A DNA stretch of 29,000 bases from contig JBHIFL010000051.1 of assembly GCA_046761065.1 (NCBI GenBank), forward strand, positions 1 through 29,000. Direction: 5' to 3'. Shown here piece by piece: positions 696 through 28,530 of this stretch. Position 1 is the first letter of the stretch. Each line of letters starts with the position of its first letter. Position numbers and translations under genes: made by a program. The stretch is from Candidatus Heimdallarchaeota archaeon. Lineage in GTDB: Archaea > Asgardarchaeota > Wukongarchaeia > Wukongarchaeales > JBHIFL01. The notes under the pieces are model-generated. The model saw only the letters and a list, made by a program, of their open reading frames with translations, did not search any database and was not told the origin of the DNA.

Positions 696-1829
696 ATGTT
701 GTTTGTCTCTAAACAGATCTCACTTCTTGCTCTTTTGATAACTATAAGTCTGTTAGGAGCTATTCCTTATAGTGAAACTACTCAAACCGATTCCTATCCA
801 CTAGAATTTGCTGGGTCTAACGCTTTTTCATATTTAGAAGAATATATGGAATTGAGTCCGATCATTCCCGGGTCTCCAGCTAGTCTCCAGTTCCACACCT
901 ATGCGACCCACTATCTTGAGAAGTACTCTTGGGAAGTTGAGCTCCAAATCTGGGAGCATCAAGGTACGAGTCAAATACTACACAATCTAATCGCCAAAAA
1001 ACACGCCTTAAATAGCATCACTAAAGAAATATTGATCCTCGGAGCCCACTATGATACACGACTTTGGGCAGATAAAGATCCTGACTCTTTGAAACGTCAA
1101 TCCCATGTACCTGGAGCTAATGACGGGGGTAGCGGAGTTGTTGTCCTATTGGAACTTTCTCGAGTATTGAATTTCCCACAAGATCTCGAGATATGGCTGG
1201 TTTTCTTTGATGCTGAAGACCAAGGAAATATACCTGGATGGGATGGTGGCATTCAAGGATGGTGTATAGGCAGTACCTACTTTGTCGGGCAATTATCGCC
1301 TCTCGAACAGGAAAAAATCCGTGTTGCAATCATTATCGATTTAGTAGGTGATTTTAATCTCATCTTAAAGAAAGAAGGGTACTCTGATCCGACTTATGTG
1401 CAGGAAATCTGGCAGGCTGCCGCAGAATTGGGCTATTCAGATTGTTTTGTAGATGAAATTGGCAGCAGTATCATTGATGATCATTTTCCATTCCTCCAGG
1501 CGGGCATCTCTGCCGTGGATATTATTCAACAAAGAAGTCGGGATGGGTATTCCTTTTTTCGATGGCATCATACTGTAAATGATACTATTGAGAACGTCTA
1601 TCCGGAAAGCCTTGAAAAAGTAGGGCGGACACTTGAATACTATATTGAAAACAAGTTATATCAAGACTCATCAACTATTATAACCCAAACTGCTTCTGAA
1701 CTCGAAACACAACTTCCTAGTTTCCCGAAAGAGTCATTTACACTTCTCACCCTTTCTGTTCTCATCATTTACATTTTTATTCAAAAAATATTAAAAAAAA
1801 CCATGAATAAGACTAATTCGGTTAAATGA
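696..1829 (+). CDS. Secreted, membrane-anchored M28-family Zn peptidase (glutaminyl-cyclase-like)
   Basis: Motifs GAHYDT, GANDGGSG, FFDAED, DDHFPF, WHHTVND; hydrophobic signal peptide after ATG 696 (ORF track starts at TTG 663); C-terminal Thr/Ser linker, TM helix and basic tail. Confidence 0.88.
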   Translation: MLFVSKQISLLALLITISLLGAIPYSETTQTDSYPLEFAGSNAFSYLEEYMELSPIIPGSPASLQFHTYATHYLEKYSWEVELQIWEHQGTSQILHNLIAKKHALNSITKEILILGAHYDTRLWADKDPDSLKRQSHVPGANDGGSGVVVLLELSRVLNFPQDLEIWLVFFDAEDQGNIPGWDGGIQGWCIGSTYFVGQLSPLEQEKIRVAIIIDLVGDFNLILKKEGYSDPTYVQEIWQAAAELGYSDCFVDEIGSSIIDDHFPFLQAGISAVDIIQQRSRDGYSFFRWHHTVNDTIENVYPESLEKVGRTLEYYIENKLYQDSSTIITQTASELETQLPSFPKESFTLLTLSVLIIYIFIQKILKKTMNKTNSVK

Positions 1830-2956: not shown

Positions 2957-3676
2957 TTAATTTCCTTGAGAAGATTGGAACCAAAGACCAGAAAAATGCG
3001 TTTCCAAATTATCCGTTGCAAACTTCCCCAACTCTGAGATTGTATACTGTTTCACCTCCCTGGTCCCAACAAGCCGCGGTTCGACCATGATCAATCCTTT
3101 CCGTCTTAGAAAGTCAAGCTTGGCTTCGAGTCGGGGGCGGGATAACCCAAATTGCTTGCGGAGCTCATACCGGGTATGTCCTTCTTGGTCGGAAAGGTAG
3201 GTGAGGATCCGAACGGTGGCAATGTCAAGCACGAGCTGCTCGTTCAAGGTATGGAAGTCGATCCAAGCCGATACCGGGAATCCTCGCGTGACCTCCTGCT
3301 CGATCTTGGTTCGCAGCCATTCGAGGACCTCGCGATTCCCCCGCACTTGGGATTGTAAAATTTGATCTTCAACTAATTTTAGAAGCCGACAAATCCTCTC
3401 CATCAGGGCGAATACCCGTGGTTTAAACTCGACGGCCGCTCCCACCGATCCTTTCGTCACCACGGCGAGGATCATGCTGTCGGTCCGATTCAGAAACACG
3501 CGTAAATTTTGTGCAATTAGTTCACACAGTTCAAGGCCAAGGGCTTCCATCGAAAAGGCATTAAGCGCCGAGAGCAGGCCACTAAAGAGGTCTTGGCTCA
3601 AGCCCGTATCACTGTGGCCAAAACTGAGTATACATTTGCCGCTGCGTTTAAAAAGAATTACTTGCTGTATTCGCAA
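2957..3676 (-). CDS. Longin-like domain fused to C-terminal winged helix-turn-helix (ArsR/MarR-like) regulator
   Basis: N-terminus VILFKRSGKCILS...LFSGLLSALNAFSMEA matches the longin-like N-termini of 4235..5620 and 17669..18829; C-terminus RILTYL..TRYELRKQFGLSRPRLEAKLDFLRRKGLI..YTISELG is a wHTH pattern. Confidence 0.75.
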   Translation of the reverse strand: MRIQQVILFKRSGKCILSFGHSDTGLSQDLFSGLLSALNAFSMEALGLELCELIAQNLRVFLNRTDSMILAVVTKGSVGAAVEFKPRVFALMERICRLLKLVEDQILQSQVRGNREVLEWLRTKIEQEVTRGFPVSAWIDFHTLNEQLVLDIATVRILTYLSDQEGHTRYELRKQFGLSRPRLEAKLDFLRRKGLIMVEPRLVGTREVKQYTISELGKFATDNLETHFSGLWFQSSQGN

Positions 3677-3750: not shown

Positions 3751-3888
3751 TTCAAGTTCAACAATCCATTTGTGCTGAATAAGCAGGATAAAACAAATTA
3801 CTTAAATCGTTCCAAATTGTGTGTTAGATCTTTTACGAGCAAACAACTTTCTAAAACCGAATAGTTTTTGATATCTATTGTCCTGGAA
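3751..3888 (-). pseudogene. Possible degenerate remnant of the 113-aa protein family (28189..28530)
   Basis: One frame reads FQDNRYQKLFGFRKLFARKRSNTQFGTI*VICFILLIQHKWIVELEE vs LEDDELSFGLSKNVRQLSITQKEIFKVFLLLRNGWIEEIEL. Confidence 0.4.
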
Positions 3889-3919
3889 ATCACATATTCC
3901 GGTTATAAAGAAAATATTG

Positions 3920-4190
3920 TTAATTCTGCCTAGATTTCATGGTATTTATAGGAATATCTAATGAGTTCTAAAGATCTTGTCGAATGGCTAGGATTTCATT
4001 ATTATTGAGACATAACTGGCACAAAACTCGTAGAATGTTCTTAATTGGTTCCGATATATGAATTACTTCGCCCAATTAAGTAGGACAATAAAAAACCATG
4101 AAAAAGCTAGCAATGCTTTAGTTGGAATTGAACTAATGAGCTATCATCTTATTCTAATTGAAATAGAACTCGAAGTGTGGATTTGGATTT
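3920..4190 (-). pseudogene. Pseudogene paralogous to the small protein at 27859..28149
   Basis: 4069->3920 reads EVIHISEPIKNILRVLCQLCLNNNEILAIRQDL*NSLDIPINTMKSRQN* vs EVVHISQPAKHTLRIFCQPSLNNYENRVIRKFLENLLNTPVDIKPNPWQNY; stops correspond to GAG->TAG (3968-3970) and TAT->TAA (3920-3922); frameshifted upstream; 5' boundary approximate. Confidence 0.85.
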
Positions 4191-4234
4191 ATATAAACGC
4201 TTACTTCGCAACCTGAGCTGGCAATCCATTTAAT

Positions 4235-5620
4235 TTACTTTTCAAATTGACTAAACGCCAGTCTGATATCCTCTTTGCTAATCATATTGCGTTTGGCGTG
4301 TCTTGCCAGCTCCATAGCTGATTCACTAATTGTAATCGCAATATCCTCTAGGATGTCTCGCAAGATCTCTGTAGCTCCTAAATTGACACGTTCAGCTCCT
4401 AATGTCTTGATAAGACGATCAATTGGTGCCAAGGGCAATTCTCGTTTTGCTACTAGATCTTGTTGACGGGGTAAAATTTCTGTAAGTCTATCAAAGATCC
4501 ATTGAAATACTTCTTCTAACCCTACTAAAGTAACAGCACTAGTTTCAAATAAACAGAATGGTCGTTTGATATCCCTTAATATCGGTGGTAACGCTTTTTC
4601 AAACATATTTTTACCAGCATAATTGGGGAGATCGTTTTTATTCAGTAAAAGGGCGAGAGGTATCTTTGGAAATTCTTCGAGGATCTTTTTCAATTCCTGT
4701 ATTGCTTCCTCCCAGCGTTGGGAATCCGCTCCATCAATGACAAAGACAAGGATATGGGTTCCTCGTGTGTTTGGGATCCATTGCGTCCGATAAATATCTT
4801 GGCCCGGCATATCCCAGCAAGCAAAGGTCAAATTCCGGAATTTGATGCGTTCCACTGAAAACGTTGTTGTAGGCGTGGTGTGATAGTCTTTTCCTTGAAT
4901 CGTATTTAGTATGGCAGTTTTTCCTGCACGATCTAAGCCCAACATTGATATTTTTGCAGTTTTTCCCCAAAGTTCCATGTATCGGCTTAATTTGTTTAAC
5001 AGTTCTTGGAGTGGTGACTCCGCCACAAGCTGCTCAGCAACTGAAAGCATCCCGTTGATTGTTATGATTACTTGTTTCAAAGCTATTTTTAGTTCAGATG
5101 AACCAAAAGTCTTCAGTAGTTCATCTATAGCTGTTGTAGGACTAAGTTCTTCTCTAGCTACAGCAAGAAACGTTTGGATTGCTTTCTCAAGGTCATATCC
5201 GGGTGAAACTGAGAGGTTACGCGCTTGTTGATTAATTAGTTGATCTAATTTTTTTTGAAATGCTTCCATCATTGATGGTGTTATCAGACGAGGCTGTTTC
5301 GATGCTTGCTTTATAAGATCTTCTGGGAATATCTGGAAGAAAATTTGGATTGTCTGCTTCATGACCTGTGCAATAAGTTCCTCACTCGTAAACTCTGTAG
5401 TTCCTATTACGAAGAGCATATCTTTTTCTTGTGTCATATATAGAGTCAAGTTTGTCATCCGAAGGGCTTCGATGGTGCCTTGTTCAAGTTCTTTCGCAAA
5501 TGCAAAGAGTGCAGATAACATCCCCGTTAGAAGTGTTTCATCTACTTCGATTTTGGGTCCATACGCGCGGCTCGCTATTGGGATCCCTGATTTTGAGAAT
5601 ATCCAAACCTGCGAAATCAA
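4235..5620 (-). CDS. Longin-like domain + helical linker + Arf-like small GTPase + C-terminal archaeal histone fold
   Basis: G1 GLDRAGKT, G3 WDMPGQ, G4 NKND, G5 ETSAV; last ~70 aa (4235..4453) ELPLAPIDRLIKTLGAERV...ELARHAKRNMISKEDIRLA align without gaps to HMf-type histones (ELPIAPIGRIIKDAGAERVS...LARHAGRKTIKAEDIELA). Confidence 0.9.
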   Translation of the reverse strand: MISQVWIFSKSGIPIASRAYGPKIEVDETLLTGMLSALFAFAKELEQGTIEALRMTNLTLYMTQEKDMLFVIGTTEFTSEELIAQVMKQTIQIFFQIFPEDLIKQASKQPRLITPSMMEAFQKKLDQLINQQARNLSVSPGYDLEKAIQTFLAVAREELSPTTAIDELLKTFGSSELKIALKQVIITINGMLSVAEQLVAESPLQELLNKLSRYMELWGKTAKISMLGLDRAGKTAILNTIQGKDYHTTPTTTFSVERIKFRNLTFACWDMPGQDIYRTQWIPNTRGTHILVFVIDGADSQRWEEAIQELKKILEEFPKIPLALLLNKNDLPNYAGKNMFEKALPPILRDIKRPFCLFETSAVTLVGLEEVFQWIFDRLTEILPRQQDLVAKRELPLAPIDRLIKTLGAERVNLGATEILRDILEDIAITISESAMELARHAKRNMISKEDIRLAFSQFEK

Positions 5621-5721: not shown

Positions 5722-7119
5722 TTAGAGATCAATTTTCCATGTTGTGAATACACCTTTATCTTCAACTATCCTAGGGGCATCTAAGTGAAAGGTTTTGAGA
5801 ACACCTTCTAAAACTCCATCAAAGAGTGTAGTTATCAACTCTTTAGGGAATCCTTGGATGATCTGATAATCAATCGTTATAAATAGCGACTGACCTCTCT
5901 GAACAACAAGAATTCGTGAAGATAATTTCGGATGTGGTCGCGGGTTCCATTCGCCCATAAGATATTGCATCCATGTTCTTTGGAGAGATGGTCCATAAGC
6001 CGTTCCGATAGTAACTGCACTTTTATGGAGTTTTGATTTCAATCCATTAGTAAAACTTTCAACTCCATCCCGAAATTCTTGAGTCACTTGGTAAAATGCA
6101 GGTAAGATCACTTTTTCAAAATGCTCTAAGAATTCCTCTTCTAATATGCGTCTAAGCATAATATCTGGCAAAGAGAAATAAAATGTCTTGATGAGGGCAA
6201 GATTGCTGCTCGAGTCTTCAATTGTCGTTAAATAAAAAGTTGCAAAGTCAATAAATTCCCTGAAAATTATTAAACACTGCTGAATATTCGAATGCAATTC
6301 CTCTCTTTTTGGGGGATCATATTTATGGAAGAAAATAGCCAATCTTGGGGGACTTTCATTGATTTTTGAAACTATATTCCATACTTCGCTTAAGTAGTCT
6401 TTAGCCGTTTCAAAAGTTTCGGGATCTTGAAGGTCAACGACAAAGATTAGAGCTGACATTTCTTTCCACATTAAATAATACTTGTCTAGGGTTAAGTATT
6501 GCTTTCGATAAGCAACCTGCCCTCCGAAATCCATGATTAATAAGCTCTGATCTATGAACTCTTGAAATTTTTGTGTGATCTCAACATCAATCGTTGGTTT
6601 AATTTTCATCACTCTGTCTTTTGACCAATTTTCAAAAAACACATTTTTGATGGAAGTTTTTCCCGCATTTTCCAACCCTACTAGTCCAATCTTTGGAATA
6701 ACCTTTTGTTTGCCGAATTCTTGAATTGATCCAACTAAAGGATCATGCACAAGTGGAGTAAGAATCGGTTCTAACTTTTTCTGAAATACCTCCTTACTTG
6801 GAAAACCTATCTTTTGATTCTCAGTTAAAATTTGCATAATTTCTTTAGATAATTGCTCAAACAGCCCTTGAATTTCTTCCATATGGATCTTTTCATCAAA
6901 CAATAACTGTAAGGTGAAGTTTTCATATGTTTTCGTATATAACATTAGATTAGAAAATTGGATCTGTTGAATTGGATCTAGAGGTTTAGAAAATGCTCGC
7001 ATGGCTTCCATAAATGCTGATATTAATTGAGGGGTGCCAAATAGTTCCTCAGGTTGTTCAGGCTTGTAAGCAAAAACTTCTCCTTCACCTTCCATTGTTA
7101 TCAAAAATTGTCTCAGCAC
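5722..7119 (-). CDS. Longin-like domain + Rag/Arf-like small GTPase + C-terminal putative V4R/Bet3-like domain
   Basis: G1 GLENAGKTS, PT switch I, DFGGQ, HKYD (Rag-type G4), TTIED; N-terminal LISAFMEAMRAFS longin helix; C-terminal LFDGVLEGVLK pattern (tentative); GTG start. Confidence 0.75.
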   Translation of the reverse strand: MLRQFLITMEGEGEVFAYKPEQPEELFGTPQLISAFMEAMRAFSKPLDPIQQIQFSNLMLYTKTYENFTLQLLFDEKIHMEEIQGLFEQLSKEIMQILTENQKIGFPSKEVFQKKLEPILTPLVHDPLVGSIQEFGKQKVIPKIGLVGLENAGKTSIKNVFFENWSKDRVMKIKPTIDVEITQKFQEFIDQSLLIMDFGGQVAYRKQYLTLDKYYLMWKEMSALIFVVDLQDPETFETAKDYLSEVWNIVSKINESPPRLAIFFHKYDPPKREELHSNIQQCLIIFREFIDFATFYLTTIEDSSSNLALIKTFYFSLPDIMLRRILEEEFLEHFEKVILPAFYQVTQEFRDGVESFTNGLKSKLHKSAVTIGTAYGPSLQRTWMQYLMGEWNPRPHPKLSSRILVVQRGQSLFITIDYQIIQGFPKELITTLFDGVLEGVLKTFHLDAPRIVEDKGVFTTWKIDL

Positions 7120-7258: not shown

Positions 7259-7834
7259 CTAGCCAGGATAATTTCTTTCCAAGAACCCAACAATTAAATC
7301 TCTCAATTCTTGGAAAGCTTGTTGAACCTTCTCTCCTGTTAAAGCGGATGTTTCCACATAGGGAATTGAAAAGCCATTTTTTTCAGTCGTCTCTGAAAGT
7401 TTTTCTGCTAGTTGTTTTCCCATCTTTATTGACAAAGTGTCTTCTCGACTCAGTCGTAGATCTGTCTTGTTCCCAACCAGAACAAGGGGAATTACAGGAT
7501 ATAGCCCATTATACTTCCAAATTTCGGTTGCCCAATTTAGGACATTTTTAAAAGTGGATTGTCGGGTTATGTCGTAGACCACTATCCCTCCAATACATCG
7601 TTTATAATAGGTTTTAATCATTTGAGAGAACTTGGGTTGACCTGCGATATCCCAAATTTGCCATCGAATTGTTTCATTGCCAATTATTGTCTCATGTACG
7701 ACGAAATCTGCCCCAATTGTACTAATGTACTCCTTCTTAAAGCCATAACCCATGTATCGTTTACGTAAACTTGTTTTTCCAACTGCCCCGTCACCTGCAA
7801 GAACTATTTTAAAAAGCCGTACTTCGTGATCCAT
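7259..7834 (-). CDS. Rab-like small GTPase (standalone, no prenylation motif)
   Basis: GDGAVGKT, TIGADF, WDIAGQ, YYKR, VVYDIT, NKTD, ETSAL; AGGAGG RBS at 7841-7846. Confidence 0.92.
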   Translation of the reverse strand: MDHEVRLFKIVLAGDGAVGKTSLRKRYMGYGFKKEYISTIGADFVVHETIIGNETIRWQIWDIAGQPKFSQMIKTYYKRCIGGIVVYDITRQSTFKNVLNWATEIWKYNGLYPVIPLVLVGNKTDLRLSREDTLSIKMGKQLAEKLSETTEKNGFSIPYVETSALTGEKVQQAFQELRDLIVGFLERNYPG

Positions 7835-9151: not shown

Positions 9152-10489
9152 TTGAAATCTATATCTCAAGTGGTGAAAGAAAAAATACTCTTAGAAACGC
9201 TCCAGACCTATTATATTAAAGGATGGAGTTATTATGGGCTTCCAGAACTTCTAGACGGGCTGTGGAGTATGAGTGAAATTGAGGCATATATGCGTGAACA
9301 TAATTATCCGAAAAGGACTGAACTTCAAGATTTTACCAGCACCCTTCAACAAATTAGACAAAAAATTGTTGGGCTTAAGAAGATACTAGAGGATTCAGAC
9401 CTCCAAACTCTAGATGAGTTACCACAGCAAATCGTCAAACATTTTTTGAAGTTGAAAGAGGAACAATTGCGCAAAGAGAGAGTTTTGTTGGAAGCACTAT
9501 TGAAATACTATAAAGGAGGGGAAAACCAAACTGAGCTTTTAATACACACTAGAGGAGAATGGAATGCTGAAGAGATTAGCTCTTATATGGAGGAACGAGG
9601 TTATCCCTCATCGATACAATCTCCGGATCATCTTGCACTTCAGCAACGAGTTCTGATGGAAATAGCGCAAATCGAGAAACAACAACTAAAATTTGGGTTT
9701 GACATTGAACGCACCCTAACAGGCATATTGGTTATCCCTTCGTGGAGGAAGCTGATAGGGACGGAATTTACCGGATTCTTTAAACAAACTCTAGTTCGTT
9801 CGATCGAGCGGGATTCTGTGGTTATGGTTGTTGATCTAGGTCGAGGATTTCAAGAGGTAACTGGTGAAGATCTTTTTCTCATAACTGGTCCTGGGATCTA
9901 TTTTACTGAATTCAATCTTGGAACCGAACTCCCAATACAAGACCATCGAGAAATCACCGGCATAATATTGCCACGCTCGATCTACCAAGCTATACAACAA
10001 GCTGAGCCAATCTATCGAAGTGAAAAAATTCGGGCTACTATAACTGATTTGGCAGCATTTATCCCCTTCAGCATGGTCACCCAACCCTATCCAATACAAG
10101 CATATCTTCGAGGCGTGCTGATGCGAAGTATCTTTTCACCACATAGGGATATACTCACCTTATTGGCTCAAAATTGTAAAACTAATCGCGCTTACTCTGT
10201 TGATGAAGGTTTTAAGGTATTAAGCGCAAGTTCGATTCATTTCAACCGGTTACTCGTAGAATCTAAGTTTCTTCTTACTGCGAATTCGCAAGAATACATG
10301 CAACTCACGGCAGGACTTGCAAATATTCAACCAGGCCTGGAAAATATCATTGTCGATCTGTTTCCTACCGAAGAAGCACAGCAAGTCTTAGGAAGAATCA
10401 ATTCACTCAAAGAATACTATGCTGAATTTGGAGAACTCCTCCTCTTTAATTGGATACCTGATTGGGAAAGAGCAACGACCAATCCTTAA
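9152..10489 (+). CDS. Uncharacterised 445-aa protein with an N-terminal tandem duplication, downstream of KaiC
   Basis: Long ORF with a GAGGGA RBS; gapless internal repeat with 99-aa period starting at E10 and E109. Confidence 0.8.
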   Translation: MKSISQVVKEKILLETLQTYYIKGWSYYGLPELLDGLWSMSEIEAYMREHNYPKRTELQDFTSTLQQIRQKIVGLKKILEDSDLQTLDELPQQIVKHFLKLKEEQLRKERVLLEALLKYYKGGENQTELLIHTRGEWNAEEISSYMEERGYPSSIQSPDHLALQQRVLMEIAQIEKQQLKFGFDIERTLTGILVIPSWRKLIGTEFTGFFKQTLVRSIERDSVVMVVDLGRGFQEVTGEDLFLITGPGIYFTEFNLGTELPIQDHREITGIILPRSIYQAIQQAEPIYRSEKIRATITDLAAFIPFSMVTQPYPIQAYLRGVLMRSIFSPHRDILTLLAQNCKTNRAYSVDEGFKVLSASSIHFNRLLVESKFLLTANSQEYMQLTAGLANIQPGLENIIVDLFPTEEAQQVLGRINSLKEYYAEFGELLLFNWIPDWERATTNP

Positions 10490-10569
10490 GTTCATAGAAG
10501 AAAAAGTTTGGGGGCTATCAATATTTGGTTATTGAATTTTTGAGTGTCATCTGATTTTATAATATAACG

Positions 10570-15774: not shown

Positions 15775-16872
15775 CTACCAATATTGCTGGAGGTCTGTAA
15801 GCGTTTTCCTCTTTTTTAGTTTAGTTTTCAGTTCGGACATTAAGGCAAGTTTTATTGCTTCCGGACTATCTACAGCGGCGGGGATAATACCAAGCGCTTG
15901 ATTTAAGGATCTATTGATCTTTCGCATTGTTTCGAACATTACGGGTGTCGGAGAAGATGAACAAAAGATTACAGACATATGTTCGGGAGAAATGGCTTCA
16001 AAACAAGCGGTGAAATCCTCAAAATCCAGCGGAACAGGTCCACTAAGTTTTTTAGATTCAACTTCATCTACAAAGGATGTTCCAACCGTTTTGAGCGCAT
16101 TTGCTGCTGCTCTCAGCAGGGTTTTGTCAGAGGTCGTCTTTGCTACACCGGAAACATAAGTGCCGTCCCGCTTGAAAATTCCTAGAGCTGAAAAATCGTC
16201 ATGTTTTTGGAGCTGTTCCTCTAACACTAGCGCCAACCGCTCAGTAACCTTGTCGACACGAGTGGCCTCTTCAGGGCTCGGAATGATATCTAGTAACTCC
16301 TTTTTAGGGGGTTTGGCCTCCACTGTAGGTAATTCTTCAAGCTCCACTGGAGGAAGAATATCCCAGAGAATTTGTCTGGCTGCTCTGTCTGCCGTATCTC
16401 CATAGATACTCGTTGCAAAACTAACAGCTGGCGATCCAAGGAATGGTTTAAGAATACTAAAAATCTCACGCGCCCGAACAAGGTTGTCTTTTAATTCCCC
16501 TGTCTTATCAGGATCAAATTTATGATATAAAATATACTTGTGAACTGGTTCTTTCTCCACAATTTTGAGGATTCGCGCCCAGTAGCTAGCAGCCTCCACG
16601 AATCGATCAGGATCTTGGATGTCAACAACAAAAATAAGGGCTGCGGTGCCCTGTAGCATCTCTGGTTTATCGAAGTAGCGATCACGATATTGAACCTGTC
16701 CCCCGAGATCCCAAATTATCATTTCCGCACCGATAAAGTCATACGGTTGCCTTTCAACCCCTTGGGTTGGTGACATTTCAGCTAAAAGGCTGGGATCTTT
16801 TAGATTGAACGTTTTCTCAAGGAGACAAGTCTTTCCCGCATAATCCAAACCTGCCATAATTATTTTTTGCAC
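15775..16872 (-). CDS. Rag/Arf-like small GTPase + Pro/Glu linker + roadblock-like domain
   Basis: GLDYAGKT, PTQG, WDLGGQ, HKFD, TSIY; C-terminal DFSALGIFKRDGTYVSG...helix...FEAISPEHMSVIFC roadblock-like topology; AGGAGG RBS at 16881-16886, GTG start. Confidence 0.82.
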   Translation of the reverse strand: MQKIIMAGLDYAGKTCLLEKTFNLKDPSLLAEMSPTQGVERQPYDFIGAEMIIWDLGGQVQYRDRYFDKPEMLQGTAALIFVVDIQDPDRFVEAASYWARILKIVEKEPVHKYILYHKFDPDKTGELKDNLVRAREIFSILKPFLGSPAVSFATSIYGDTADRAARQILWDILPPVELEELPTVEAKPPKKELLDIIPSPEEATRVDKVTERLALVLEEQLQKHDDFSALGIFKRDGTYVSGVAKTTSDKTLLRAAANALKTVGTSFVDEVESKKLSGPVPLDFEDFTACFEAISPEHMSVIFCSSSPTPVMFETMRKINRSLNQALGIIPAAVDSPEAIKLALMSELKTKLKKRKTLTDLQQYW

Positions 16873-17138: not shown

Positions 17139-17464
17139 TTTTATCCATCTAGCTGTTTTGCCTTTCATCTTTAAATATCTGTTTTTTTCCCCCTCTTATC
17201 CTTTTTTCAAGGGTTTTAAAAAGCTGAAACCACATATCAAAGAAAATAAACCCTATTTTGATGATATTAATGAATGTCTCTTTTTATCGTGGATAAAGGG
17301 GATCTATATTGGCAACTGACTCGGTAGGGCATGAAACCAGTACCAAATACATGAAAATTCAAGTCGGGCCAAGAATTTTGCCATTAACATCGGTTGTGGA
17401 AAAATCAAGCTTAATTGATATGATACAAGGTTAAACAAATTATTTATTTATTATATTTCCTTCA

Positions 17465-17659
17465 TTATAGTTCGTTGTTCTCCTCCATGACCGAATTTTG
17501 AATGTGATGTCATGCCAACTCTACGGTCAATTTGTCAATGATACTAGAAGATCCTTCGGATTTTTATAAAGCCAATGTAGCCTTTGAATAGACACATTCA
17601 GCATCAGCTTCCCTGATACGGTGATCAATTGATGTACATTCTCGTTATCGTTTTGCCAT
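17465..17659 (-). pseudogene. Degenerate archaeal histone fold in frame behind the longin-Arf paralog
   Basis: Reads MAKR*RECTSIDHRIREADAECVYSKATLAL*KSEGSSSIIDKLTVELA*HHIQNSVMEENNEL* vs VAKRELPLAPIDRLIKTLGAERVNLGATEILRDILEDIAITISESAMELARHAKRNMISKEDIRL; codon register kept apart from a net 3-nt loss. Confidence 0.82.
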
Positions 17660-17668
17660 TATAGATTC

Positions 17669-18829
17669 TTAATAGGGCAGGATTTCTGCTAGCCTATGAA
17701 AAATCCAGTCAAATAGGTCCTCTAACCCTTCTCCAGTGACGGCACTGGTTTCAAACATACAAAATGGTCGCTTGGATTCTTGCAATATTAAGATTAGACC
17801 CTTATTGATCACCTTTTTTCCGGTATAATATGGAAGATCCGCTTTATTCAGTAATAAAGCAAGAGGGGTATTTGGGAATTCATCAAGAACCGTTGTTAGT
17901 TCTTGTCTCGCTTCCTCCCAACGTTGTGGATCTGCACCATCGACGACAAAGACAAGGATATGGGTTCCGCGCGTGTAAGGAATCCATTGTGTTCGATATC
18001 TTTCTTGACCTGGTATGTCCCAGCAAACAAGGGTTAAGTTTCGGAAGTTGATGCTTTCCACCGATAAAGATGTTGTGGGTGTGGTGTGATAGTCCCTTCC
18101 TTGAATTGTATTTAGTATGGCAGTTTTTCCTGCACGATCTAAGCCGATTATTGAAATTTTGGCGGTTTTTCCCCACAACCCAATAAAACGATTTAATTCT
18201 TGTAACAATATTTGGAGTGAGGACTCCGCAGCAAATTGCTCGGTGACCGATAACATTGTGTTTAAAGTTGTAGTTACTTGTTTCATGGTTGATTTTAGTT
18301 CAAACTGATCAAAGATCTCCAGTAGTTCATCTCTCGCAGTGATTGGGTTAAGTTCCTCTTTAACCACAGCACGAAATGTTTGTTTTGCTTTTTCAAGGTC
18401 ATAATCCGATATAACTGTAAAGTGACGTGCTTGTTGATTAATAATAATGTCTAATTTCTTCTGAAACGCTTCCACCATTGAGTGAGGGATCAGATGTGGC
18501 GCCTTAGCTGATTTTTTTAAAAGCTTGTCAGGGAATGTCTGGAAGAACGTTTGTTTTATCTGATGCATGACCCGCGTAACAAACGTATCATCGACGACAT
18601 GCGGCTCAGTACCTATGACGAAAAATAGATTCTTTTCATGAGACCCGAAAAGGGTTAGATTCGTCATCCGCAGGGCTTCGAAAGTGCCTTTATTCAGTTC
18701 TTTTGCAAAAGCAAAGAACGCAGTTAATATTCCTGTTAGAAGAGGCTCATCCAGTTCGAGTTTGGGGCTATACGCTCGACTTACTATTGGTATTCCTGAA
18801 TTCCTGAATATCCAAACATATGATATCAC
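17669..18829 (-). CDS. Longin-like domain + Arf-like small GTPase (paralog of 4235..5620 lacking an intact histone)
   Basis: Colinear similarity to 4235..5620 over its whole length; GLDRAGKT, WDIPGQ, NKAD, ETSAV; GGGAGG RBS at 18838-18843. Confidence 0.9.
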   Translation of the reverse strand: MISYVWIFRNSGIPIVSRAYSPKLELDEPLLTGILTAFFAFAKELNKGTFEALRMTNLTLFGSHEKNLFFVIGTEPHVVDDTFVTRVMHQIKQTFFQTFPDKLLKKSAKAPHLIPHSMVEAFQKKLDIIINQQARHFTVISDYDLEKAKQTFRAVVKEELNPITARDELLEIFDQFELKSTMKQVTTTLNTMLSVTEQFAAESSLQILLQELNRFIGLWGKTAKISIIGLDRAGKTAILNTIQGRDYHTTPTTSLSVESINFRNLTLVCWDIPGQERYRTQWIPYTRGTHILVFVVDGADPQRWEEARQELTTVLDEFPNTPLALLLNKADLPYYTGKKVINKGLILILQESKRPFCMFETSAVTGEGLEDLFDWIFHRLAEILPY

Positions 18830-27858: not shown

Positions 27859-28149
27859 TCAACTAATTTCAAAATCTATATAATTTTGCCATGGATTTGG
27901 TTTAATATCTACAGGAGTATTTAATAAGTTCTCAAGGAATTTACGAATAACTCGGTTTTCGTAATTATTGAGACTTGGCTGACAAAATATTCGCAAGGTA
28001 TGCTTAGCTGGTTGTGAAATATGAACAACTTCCTTTCGATTGATTAGAGCTGACACAACAATTGAAATGTTTGGAATATCGAGGGATGATGGAATCTGCC
28101 CATCATCCTTCGATCGTATTCTCAATAGAGGATTGGAACTATTCTGTAT
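27859..28149 (-). CDS. Small hypothetical protein (88-96 aa), same family as 28189..28530
   Basis: ORF track 27859..28125; open in frame to ATA 28149 behind a GGGGT RBS; coding status supported by the decayed paralog at 3920..4069. Confidence 0.72.
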   Translation of the reverse strand: MQNSSNPLLRIRSKDDGQIPSSLDIPNISIVVSALINRKEVVHISQPAKHTLRIFCQPSLNNYENRVIRKFLENLLNTPVDIKPNPWQNYIDFEIS

Positions 28150-28188
28150 CGAAATCTACCCCTTTTGTTTTTAGGAACCCCTTAGGGT

Positions 28189-28530
28189 TTAGATTGGAAT
28201 GAGATCTATGTACGTCGAACTCCAATAGATGTTAAAGGGGGCATCCACTGTTCGTTCTAGCAACTTGCGAAGCACCTGGACTGCTTGTTCCAGAATTTGA
28301 CTTGGATTGGTCCCTATATGAAACCGGAACCCCTCATTATCAAGCAGCTCAATTTCTTCGATCCAACCATTTCGCAACAACAAAAAAACTTTGAAGATCT
28401 CTTTCTGGGTAATCGAGAGTTGTCGAACATTTTTCGATAAACCAAAACTCAACTCGTCATCCTCTAAAGACAAACTAATTTCATGATTTATATTTGCCTG
28501 ATTTAAAATCTTATTTGCCTGTGCGGTCAT
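28189..28530 (-). CDS. Small hypothetical protein (113 aa)
   Basis: AGGAG RBS; C-terminus VLRKLLERTVDAPFNIYWSSTYIDL resembles VIRKFLENLLNTPVDIKPNPWQNYIDF of the neighbour. Confidence 0.72.
   Translation of the reverse strand: MTAQANKILNQANINHEISLSLEDDELSFGLSKNVRQLSITQKEIFKVFLLLRNGWIEEIELLDNEGFRFHIGTNPSQILEQAVQVLRKLLERTVDAPFNIYWSSTYIDLIPI

Follow-up and report, generated by a model that had tools for sequence, protein, structure and literature searches.

The 29,000-nucleotide stretch of DNA analysed here (the window hereafter) is the beginning of contig JBHIFL010000051.1 from a metagenome-assembled genome of Candidatus Heimdallarchaeota archaeon, and it carries on its minus strand a gene in which a longin-like domain, an Arf-like GTPase (G) domain and a nucleosome-type archaeal histone fold are joined. 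The open reading frame (ORF) is uninterrupted, starts at a TTG codon and encodes 461 residues, whose division into domains is given in Table 1 along with other genes of the window. This architecture had been proposed in an initial annotation made from the sequence alone, and it is confirmed here by the continuous frame, Pfam profile searches, comparison with solved structures and an AlphaFold2 model of the fused protein built on a 102-row alignment (mean predicted local distance difference test score, pLDDT, of 80).

Table 1. The fused gene, its parts and other genes of the window, with the evidence or remarks for each.
Feature	Position	Strand	Evidence or remark
Whole fused gene	4235..5620	-	461 codons and TAA stop (4235-4237)
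Longin-like domain, residues 1-110	5291..5620	-	AlphaFold2 topology; Pfam match below cut-off; ESM Atlas structural matches
Helical region, residues 111-217, particular to this small GTPase family	4970..5290	-	AlphaFold2 helices 115-216; conserved in P0005, P0006 and P0007
Arf-like G domain, residues 218-384, G1-G5 intact	4469..4969	-	Pfam Arf; Foldseek; motifs
Junction, residues 385-393 (RQQDLVAKR)	4442..4468	-	DNA alignment with the paralog and the free histone gene of contig C23
Nucleosomal (HMf-type) histone fold, residues 394-461	4238..4441	-	Pfam; solved structures; AlphaFold2; dimer model
Paralogous longin-Arf GTPase gene (P0005), without histone	17669..18829	-	386 residues, 66% identical; TAA 17669-17671 aligned with CAA 4463-4465
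Decayed histone gene 3' of the paralog, same frame	17453..17668	-	9-nucleotide spacer; ATG kept; several internal stops
Longin-like and Gtr1/RagA-like GTPase, 170-residue C-terminal region without assignment	5722..7119	-	Pfam
Rab-like GTPase gene	7259..7834	-	In a minus-strand run with the fused gene
Longin-like and winged-helix (longin-wHTH) gene	2957..3676	-	Helix-turn-helix matches of E 5e-4 to 1e-3, below cut-off
Arf/Rag-like GTPase, 365 residues, 170-residue C-terminal region without assignment	15775..16872	-	Syntenic with the relative on L001

The central domain, modelled as a Ras-like alpha/beta fold, is assigned to the Arf family by several lines of evidence. Pfam places the Arf profile at residues 211-377 (122 bits, E 2.4e-35), whereas Ras reaches only 35 bits and Roc and Gtr1/RagA score far lower. 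In Foldseek, the first match is the Asgard GTPase GerdArfR1 (8oum), followed by Arf6 and Arl1, and the top 50 matches are all Arf or Arl. The nucleotide-binding motifs, which had been described as intact, were located between residues 228 and 362: G1 GLDRAGKT (228-235), switch I TTPTTT (248-253), G3 DMPGQ (270-274, with the switch II glutamine Q274), G4 NKND (327-330) and G5 TSA (360-362). An alignment of the four known family members showed the G1-G5 motifs to be invariant. In the model, the N-terminal amphipathic helix of Arf proteins is absent, and 217 residues of longin-like and helical sequence precede the G domain.

Residues 1-110 are predicted to adopt the beta-beta-alpha-beta-beta-beta-alpha topology of longin domains (pLDDT 77-96). 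The Pfam profile Fuz_longin_1 gave E 0.0037, below the family cut-off, and the structural matches in the ESM Atlas are Asgard clusters annotated as 'first longin domain of FUZ/MON1/HPS1', with template modelling (TM) scores of 0.77-0.79 normalised by the match. The longin assignment is supported by this predicted topology, less firmly than those of the other domains. The helical region which follows had no Pfam match. Within it, residues 154-188 (5066-5161, minus strand) resemble the alpha1-L1-alpha2 part of a histone (34% identity over 35 residues, pairwise BLASTP E 7e-5); a second, cryptic histone fold was considered there and rejected as a chance similarity between helices, profile-profile comparison of the helical family segment with 40 histones giving a probability of 0.5% and no support for such a fold.

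The C-terminal domain is separated from the G domain by a linker of nine residues, of which 387-391 have pLDDT values below 50. With the whole protein as query, the Pfam family CBFD_NFYB_HMF (PF00808) matches residues 393-455 (42.5 bits, E 7.8e-11, for a cut-off of 21.4 bits), and the last 77 residues searched alone reach 47.2 bits (E 2.7e-12), in agreement with the histone fold first read from the sequence. Against solved structures, the same 77 residues give gap-free alignments with HPhA (1ku5; E 1e-15) and, across the whole 69-residue histone, with HMfB (E 2.3e-13). Three helices are modelled with pLDDT 92-98: alpha1 (397-406), alpha2 (414-441, 28 residues) and alpha3 (449-460, 12 residues).

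When residues are converted to HMfB numbering by subtracting 392, the fused domain is found to keep R10 (R402), G16 (G408), R19 (R411), L46 (L438), H49 (H441), R52 (R444), D59 (D451) and L62 (L454), at each of which it carries the majority residue of 66 comparison histones. In archaeal histones, R52 and D59 form the clamp of the fold, L46, H49, D59 and L62 act in dimer-dimer contacts, G16 in stacking, and R10 and R19 in the minor groove (Henneman et al., 2018, PMC6136690). Seven of these residues had been listed as retained, and each was matched by the HMfB alignment. The same holds for the two altered motifs, RVS becoming RVN (N413) and RKT becoming RNM (N445, M446). At these altered positions the fused domain has residues that are rare among the 66 histones: T54 is threonine in 62 and methionine here, S21 is serine in 55 and asparagine here, and K53 is lysine in 41 and asparagine here. 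The full set of DNA contacts (R10, R19, K53, T54 and the L1 serine) is not present, the two arginines being kept and the other three residues replaced. As cited in PMC6867714, the HMfB triple variant K13T-R19S-T54K abolishes DNA binding (Soares, 2000). Compared with the nucleosomal histones HMfB, HPhA and HTkA, the fused domain has the full fold, with about 45% identity to HMfB and HPhA, and shares the clamp, the tetramer residues, G16 and the two arginines; it differs from them at the three contact positions and in carrying a large N-terminal mass next to alpha1, those histones being free proteins of 65-75 residues.

The history of the gene can be approached through its paralog P0005, which sits 13 kb away. 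Across the junction, the fused gene reads CGT CAA caa gat cta GTA GCA AAA CGA GAA TTG CCC and the paralog TAT TAA gaa tct ata ATG GCA AAA CGA TAA CGA GAA, followed in frame by a histone riddled with stops. The junction of the fused gene consists of a former stop codon (CAA, codon 386), a former 9-nucleotide spacer, a former histone start, now GTA (4451-4453), and the histone codons for AKR. The remnant downstream of the paralog was seen by tblastn, and a whole-genome search reads through it to query residue 459 with two TGA and four TAA codons, one TAA being the paralog's own stop. At the nucleotide level it is 56% identical to the fused histone and 55% identical to the free histone of contig C23, and these values do not discriminate which of the two is its closer kin.

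Only three whole-protein relatives were found in a search of 5.8 billion clusters, all without a histone: P0005 itself, P0006 (388 residues, on an NCBI metagenome contig) and P0007 (392 residues, on a Logan contig). P0005 and P0006 end exactly at Q386 of the fusion and P0007 six codons later. No histone remnant was detected by tblastn or sensitive blastn 3' of the two outside relatives (L001 and L002); L001 is syntenic with the paralog, a 365-residue GTPase following there as well. The genome holds five further histone-fold loci, six with the fusion. Free histones are encoded on contigs C23, C59 and C33. The one on C23, which begins MAKRELPLAPIDRL, is 63% identical to the fused domain and nearer to it than any representative of a 1.84-billion library (maximum 52%).

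Elsewhere in the genome, on contig C21 (L008), a divergent histone-fold gene (1492-1722, minus strand), with the weakest Pfam match (26.8 bits), lies tail-to-tail about 110 nucleotides from a Ras/Rab-like GTPase ORF (852-1382, plus strand; G1 GDMGVGRT). In a GTPase-rich genome this pairing may be due to chance.

These features suggest a succession of events in which a free histone gene would first have been placed nine nucleotides downstream of the GTPase gene, in frame, and the two-gene cassette then duplicated. In one copy the histone would have decayed, and in the other a T-to-C transition would have turned TAA into CAA, the useless ATG later drifting to GTA. Judged from the sequences, an ancestor already fused would need one more change than this history of adjacent genes. 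The fusion very probably derived from two neighbouring genes by loss of a stop codon. With the stop lost and the ATG changed to GTA, the histone would now be produced only at the C-terminal end of the GTPase chain. The order of the duplication relative to the L001 and L002 lineages was also considered. Raw identities (66% against 57-61%) favour fusion and paralog as sisters, whereas the four family sequences form an open fork (82/91) in a maximum-likelihood tree rooted with three outgroups. On this account the locus would record the path of a fusion, from neighbouring genes to stop loss in one copy and histone decay in the other, as a textbook case of read-through fusion.

A single base separates the CAA at 4463-4465 from the TAA of the paralog, and the alternative that the true sequence has a stop there, with two genes hidden by an assembly or sequencing error or by a minor allele, has to be weighed. 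With the stop in place, the histone might still start at the TTG of codon 395 (4436-4438), which in principle could initiate a separate protein. The initial annotation had named a stop at these positions as the mark of an assembly error. The same 1832-nucleotide Logan contig, spanning 3900-4931 from the G1 region across the junction to beyond the stop, is present in four hydrothermal-vent metagenome runs with 0 differences, at depths of 19-34, and reads CAA in each. The four runs were assembled separately and belong to one study; they may be the source of the assembly itself, and the evidence consists of contigs, which hide minor alleles, and not of raw reads. Loss of the canonical histone start to GTA also fits a locus which no longer needs one. 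An error or minor allele is considered very improbable, and the gene is in all likelihood fused in the DNA.

An exact word common to the fused gene and the paralog interrupts the Logan contigs at 4910-4931 and 18108-18145; it splits the de Bruijn graph and appears as a 38-nucleotide contig at double depth. Over 300 nucleotides of the G domain (4608-4907 vs 17814-18113), the two genes are 78% identical. A 13-kb contig between the breaks joins both genes, so that no linear path other than the assembled one leads through the shared k-mer. Whichever path joins them, both genes have the same N-terminal architecture. Recombination or gene conversion between the paralogs might also take place at this shared stretch.

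The architecture appears to be confined to this genome in everything searched. The initial annotation had called for a search across Asgard genomes. No second protein joining an Arf/Ras-type G domain to such a histone was found among the 5.8 billion clusters, which were searched by words with the entire protein and, at lengths 253-807, with the histone region. No fused relative was found among the 1.84 billion representatives by exhaustive HMMER search with residues 285-461, in which such a relative would rank first and matches in two stretches were checked, nor in 60 related genomes, nor in 185,579 species genomes searched with a single-domain query. In metagenomes of the Joint Genome Institute (JGI), residues 340-461 gave ten chance pattern matches (VNLGATEI) within large, high-GC bacterial proteins and no relative. 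A 313-residue ORF of a related genome (G025), matching residues 218-454, proved to be an Arf-like GTPase whose C-terminal region is roadblock-like and contains no histone. Sister lineages are unsampled, as the closest relative in the collection is related only at the level of order.

The fused histone is intact over 68 codons, and its Pfam score of 46.6 bits compares with 48-53 bits for the free histones of the genome. Rough Nei-Gojobori estimates of nonsynonymous (dN) and synonymous (dS) divergence gave dN 0.32, dS 0.97 and dN/dS of about 0.33 between the fused and C23 histones, and a ratio near 0.2 when the GTPase portions of the paralogs are compared; with dS near saturation, these values show only that purifying selection was at work during most of the divergence. 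That the former start codon has changed at two positions suggests that the stop loss is not very recent.

Several observations weigh against a maintained, functional fusion, in addition to the TTG codon and the possible origin of the assembly in the same four runs, both mentioned above. Just one metagenome-assembled genome (91% complete, 8% contamination) shows the fusion, no histone-bearing ortholog was found elsewhere, and a single base change suffices to create it. The histone of the sister copy is dead, and GTPase-linked histones are therefore dispensable in this lineage. The rare residues at DNA-contact positions equally fit early decay, and the conservation of the others may date from the time when the histone was a free gene. 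Together with a dN/dS value higher in the histone than in the G domain, these points favour a transient, non-adaptive read-through, in which a stop was lost by chance, the cell tolerates the product or is slightly harmed by it, and decay of the histone is setting in as it did in its sister. Against this, the 68 codons contain no stop or frameshift, all fold-critical residues are kept and the Pfam score matches those of free histones. The domain is still intact although the ATG has been altered at two positions, and GTPase-histone and histone-longin/Roadblock fusions have arisen independently in other Asgard lineages. We regard such a transient state as unlikely. A neutral accident in one lineage would have small wider significance.

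The preferred reading is that the fusion yields a GTPase dimerised through its histone fold, possibly tethered to chromatin, and that it arose by stop loss; we give this whole explanation a probability of roughly 0.5. The initial annotation had offered two functional readings, a chromatin component switched by nucleotide and a GTPase oligomerised or tethered to DNA by its histone fold; of what these imply, histone-type homodimerisation alone has the support of a model. Histone folds do not exist as monomers, and when archaeal histones are bound to DNA, alpha1 has its N-terminus on the DNA-facing side. When two copies of residues 216-461 were modelled, as the initial annotation had envisaged for the homodimer, a histone handshake was predicted with a score of 0.66, against 0.00 for the best of three controls; this is a likeness only, which may reflect memory of solved histone dimers. 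The runs agree on at least 86% of contacts, with a partner pLDDT of at least 76. Among proteins of solved structure, 20 of 30 that are pairs of one chain reach this mark, as does 1 of 23 that are single chains. The predicted interface is confined to residues 394-456 and comprises the alpha2-alpha2 crossing (427:427) and the L1-L2 pairing (413:447) of a classic handshake. By this prediction, the G domains would not stand in its way. The histone domain probably folds and dimerises.

The C-terminal domain would most likely be an obligate handshake dimeriser, whose partner may be another molecule of the same protein, so that the GTPase would have two heads, or, by a putative heterodimerisation, one of the free histones of the cell. 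Since the fold, tetramer and minor-groove residues are kept and three contact positions in L1 and L2 are replaced, the protein may join histone-DNA particles and bind DNA less well on its own. Because some 390 residues sit about nine residues upstream of alpha1, it is not expected to stack inside a long hypernucleosome. It might instead mark or cap histone particles with a longin-bearing head switchable by guanosine triphosphate (GTP); we infer the tethering, the capping and any effect of GTP or guanosine diphosphate (GDP). That the GTPase is tied to histone-DNA particles, and is not a mere dimeriser or a neutral accident, is put forward tentatively, as an even chance at best.

The predicted homodimer contacts, which lie in the histone fold alone and may echo solved dimers, would also suit a protein which has co-opted the fold simply to dimerise through its C-terminal end, without acting on DNA or chromatin, like the C-terminal roadblock of Rag/Gtr and of Asgard GTPase-roadblock proteins. 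A C-terminal roadblock or longin is common on Asgard Rag/Arf-like GTPases (Tran et al., 2024, PMC10933270), as in a 312-residue ORF of L021, and the replacement of the near-invariant T54, and also of K53 and S21, points in the same direction. None of the retained R10, R19, G16 and L46/H49/D59/L62 is needed for a mere dimer, and P0005, P0006 and P0007 apparently work without any C-terminal dimeriser. The C-terminal regions of neighbouring GTPases (residues 195-365 of P0157 and 290-465 of P0002) have no Pfam match, so that the roadblock analogy is drawn from the literature only. Dimerisation as the sole function seems rather unlikely, and a GTPase dimerised by its histone fold and possibly tethered to chromatin is still preferred.

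A further elaboration is that the protein is a GTP-switched chromatin component, in which the nucleotide state of the Arf domain, set through the longin and the surrounding island of two-component, GTPase and longin-wHTH genes, would control pairing with free histones and the entry into or capping of histone-DNA particles. Ran-RCC1 on nucleosomes is a eukaryotic example of a small GTPase acting with chromatin, and such a logic is otherwise not known outside eukaryotes. If true, this would be a direct output from a small GTPase to chromatin in an Asgard archaeon. We consider this specific proposal decidedly improbable. The fused gene stands in a minus-strand run between the longin-Rag-like GTPase, itself preceded by the Rab-like GTPase, and the longin-wHTH gene. 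The island around it contains further GTPases, V4R, KaiC and two-component genes, and this neighbourhood fits a signalling role and proves nothing.

Some additional features of the window were recorded. A gap of 558 nucleotides separates the fused gene from the longin-wHTH gene, and in it 3751-4190 was flagged in the initial annotation as putative dead copies of small ORFs from 27859-28530. At 10460-10515, at the 3' end of the ORF 9152..10489, the Logan contigs break in three of the four runs, leaving loose ends of 23-25 nucleotides and low-depth side contigs of 53-55 nucleotides, a pattern suggesting that the population contains a variant strain or a short inverted repeat. The contig starts (1-82) with three perfect tandem copies of a 27-nucleotide unit (TCTTCAGCTGGTTCCGTTGGTTCCTCT), possibly within an ORF with repeats that the contig end truncates.

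The expanded small-GTPase and longin repertoire of these archaea, as well as their histones, have been studied as forerunners of eukaryotic trafficking and chromatin. Among described proteins, the closest in design are the Rab GTPase histones of Lokiarchaeota, in which a Rab-like domain is N-terminal and an alpha3-truncated, face-to-face-like histone C-terminal, with an alpha3 of 3-4 residues and a shorter alpha2 (Schwab et al., 2024, PMC11390915). The initial annotation had given the histone as N-terminal in these fusions; the published order places the GTPase first, as here, and the order is not novel. What stands of the claimed distinctness is the type of histone, the type of GTPase and the longin module. 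In both, a GTPase is followed by a histone in one chain and the histone fold is predicted to mediate dimerisation, and no function is known for either. The fusion lacks two defining features of Rab GTPase histones, the truncated fold and the Rab-like domain: its alpha3 and alpha2 are full length and align with HMfB without gaps, and its G domain is Arf-like in both Pfam and Foldseek. It adds the 217-residue longin and helical module, and it is an independent event, visible as the loss of a stop codon.

Left out of that earlier survey of prior art were the Hodarchaeales proteins in which a histone fold is fused to Roadblock/LC7, with a function stated as unknown (Hocher and Warnecke, 2024, PMC10919886). 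They resemble the fusion in combining, in one Asgard chain, a histone fold with a domain of the roadblock/longin class of small-GTPase regulators. Unlike them, the fusion has a GTPase domain, and about 280 residues of helical region and G domain part its longin from its histone. No histone-Roadblock/LC7 protein was found among the six histone-fold loci of this genome.

Longin-GTPase and GTPase-roadblock architectures have been described in Asgard archaea (Tran et al., 2024, PMC10933270), and the first 384 residues of the fusion, a longin followed by an Arf/Rag-like G domain, belong with these and with the ArfR GTPases such as GerdArfR1. No described architecture of this kind ends in a histone fold, and in the fusion the Arf amphipathic helix is replaced by the longin and helical regions. 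A more distant parallel is provided by eukaryotic SOS, in which a histone fold is also built into a small-GTPase signalling protein; in SOS it forms an intramolecular pseudodimer which binds lipid and regulates the guanine nucleotide exchange factor, with no fused GTPase domain and no sequence kinship to the fusion. By a Rosetta-stone argument, the recurrence of such fusions indicates that GTPase switches and histone folds are linked, physically or functionally, in these archaea. The protein described here is the third independent Asgard link of histone folds with GTPase modules, the first with a bona fide nucleosome-type histone, and the first case in which longin, GTPase and histone are found in one chain.

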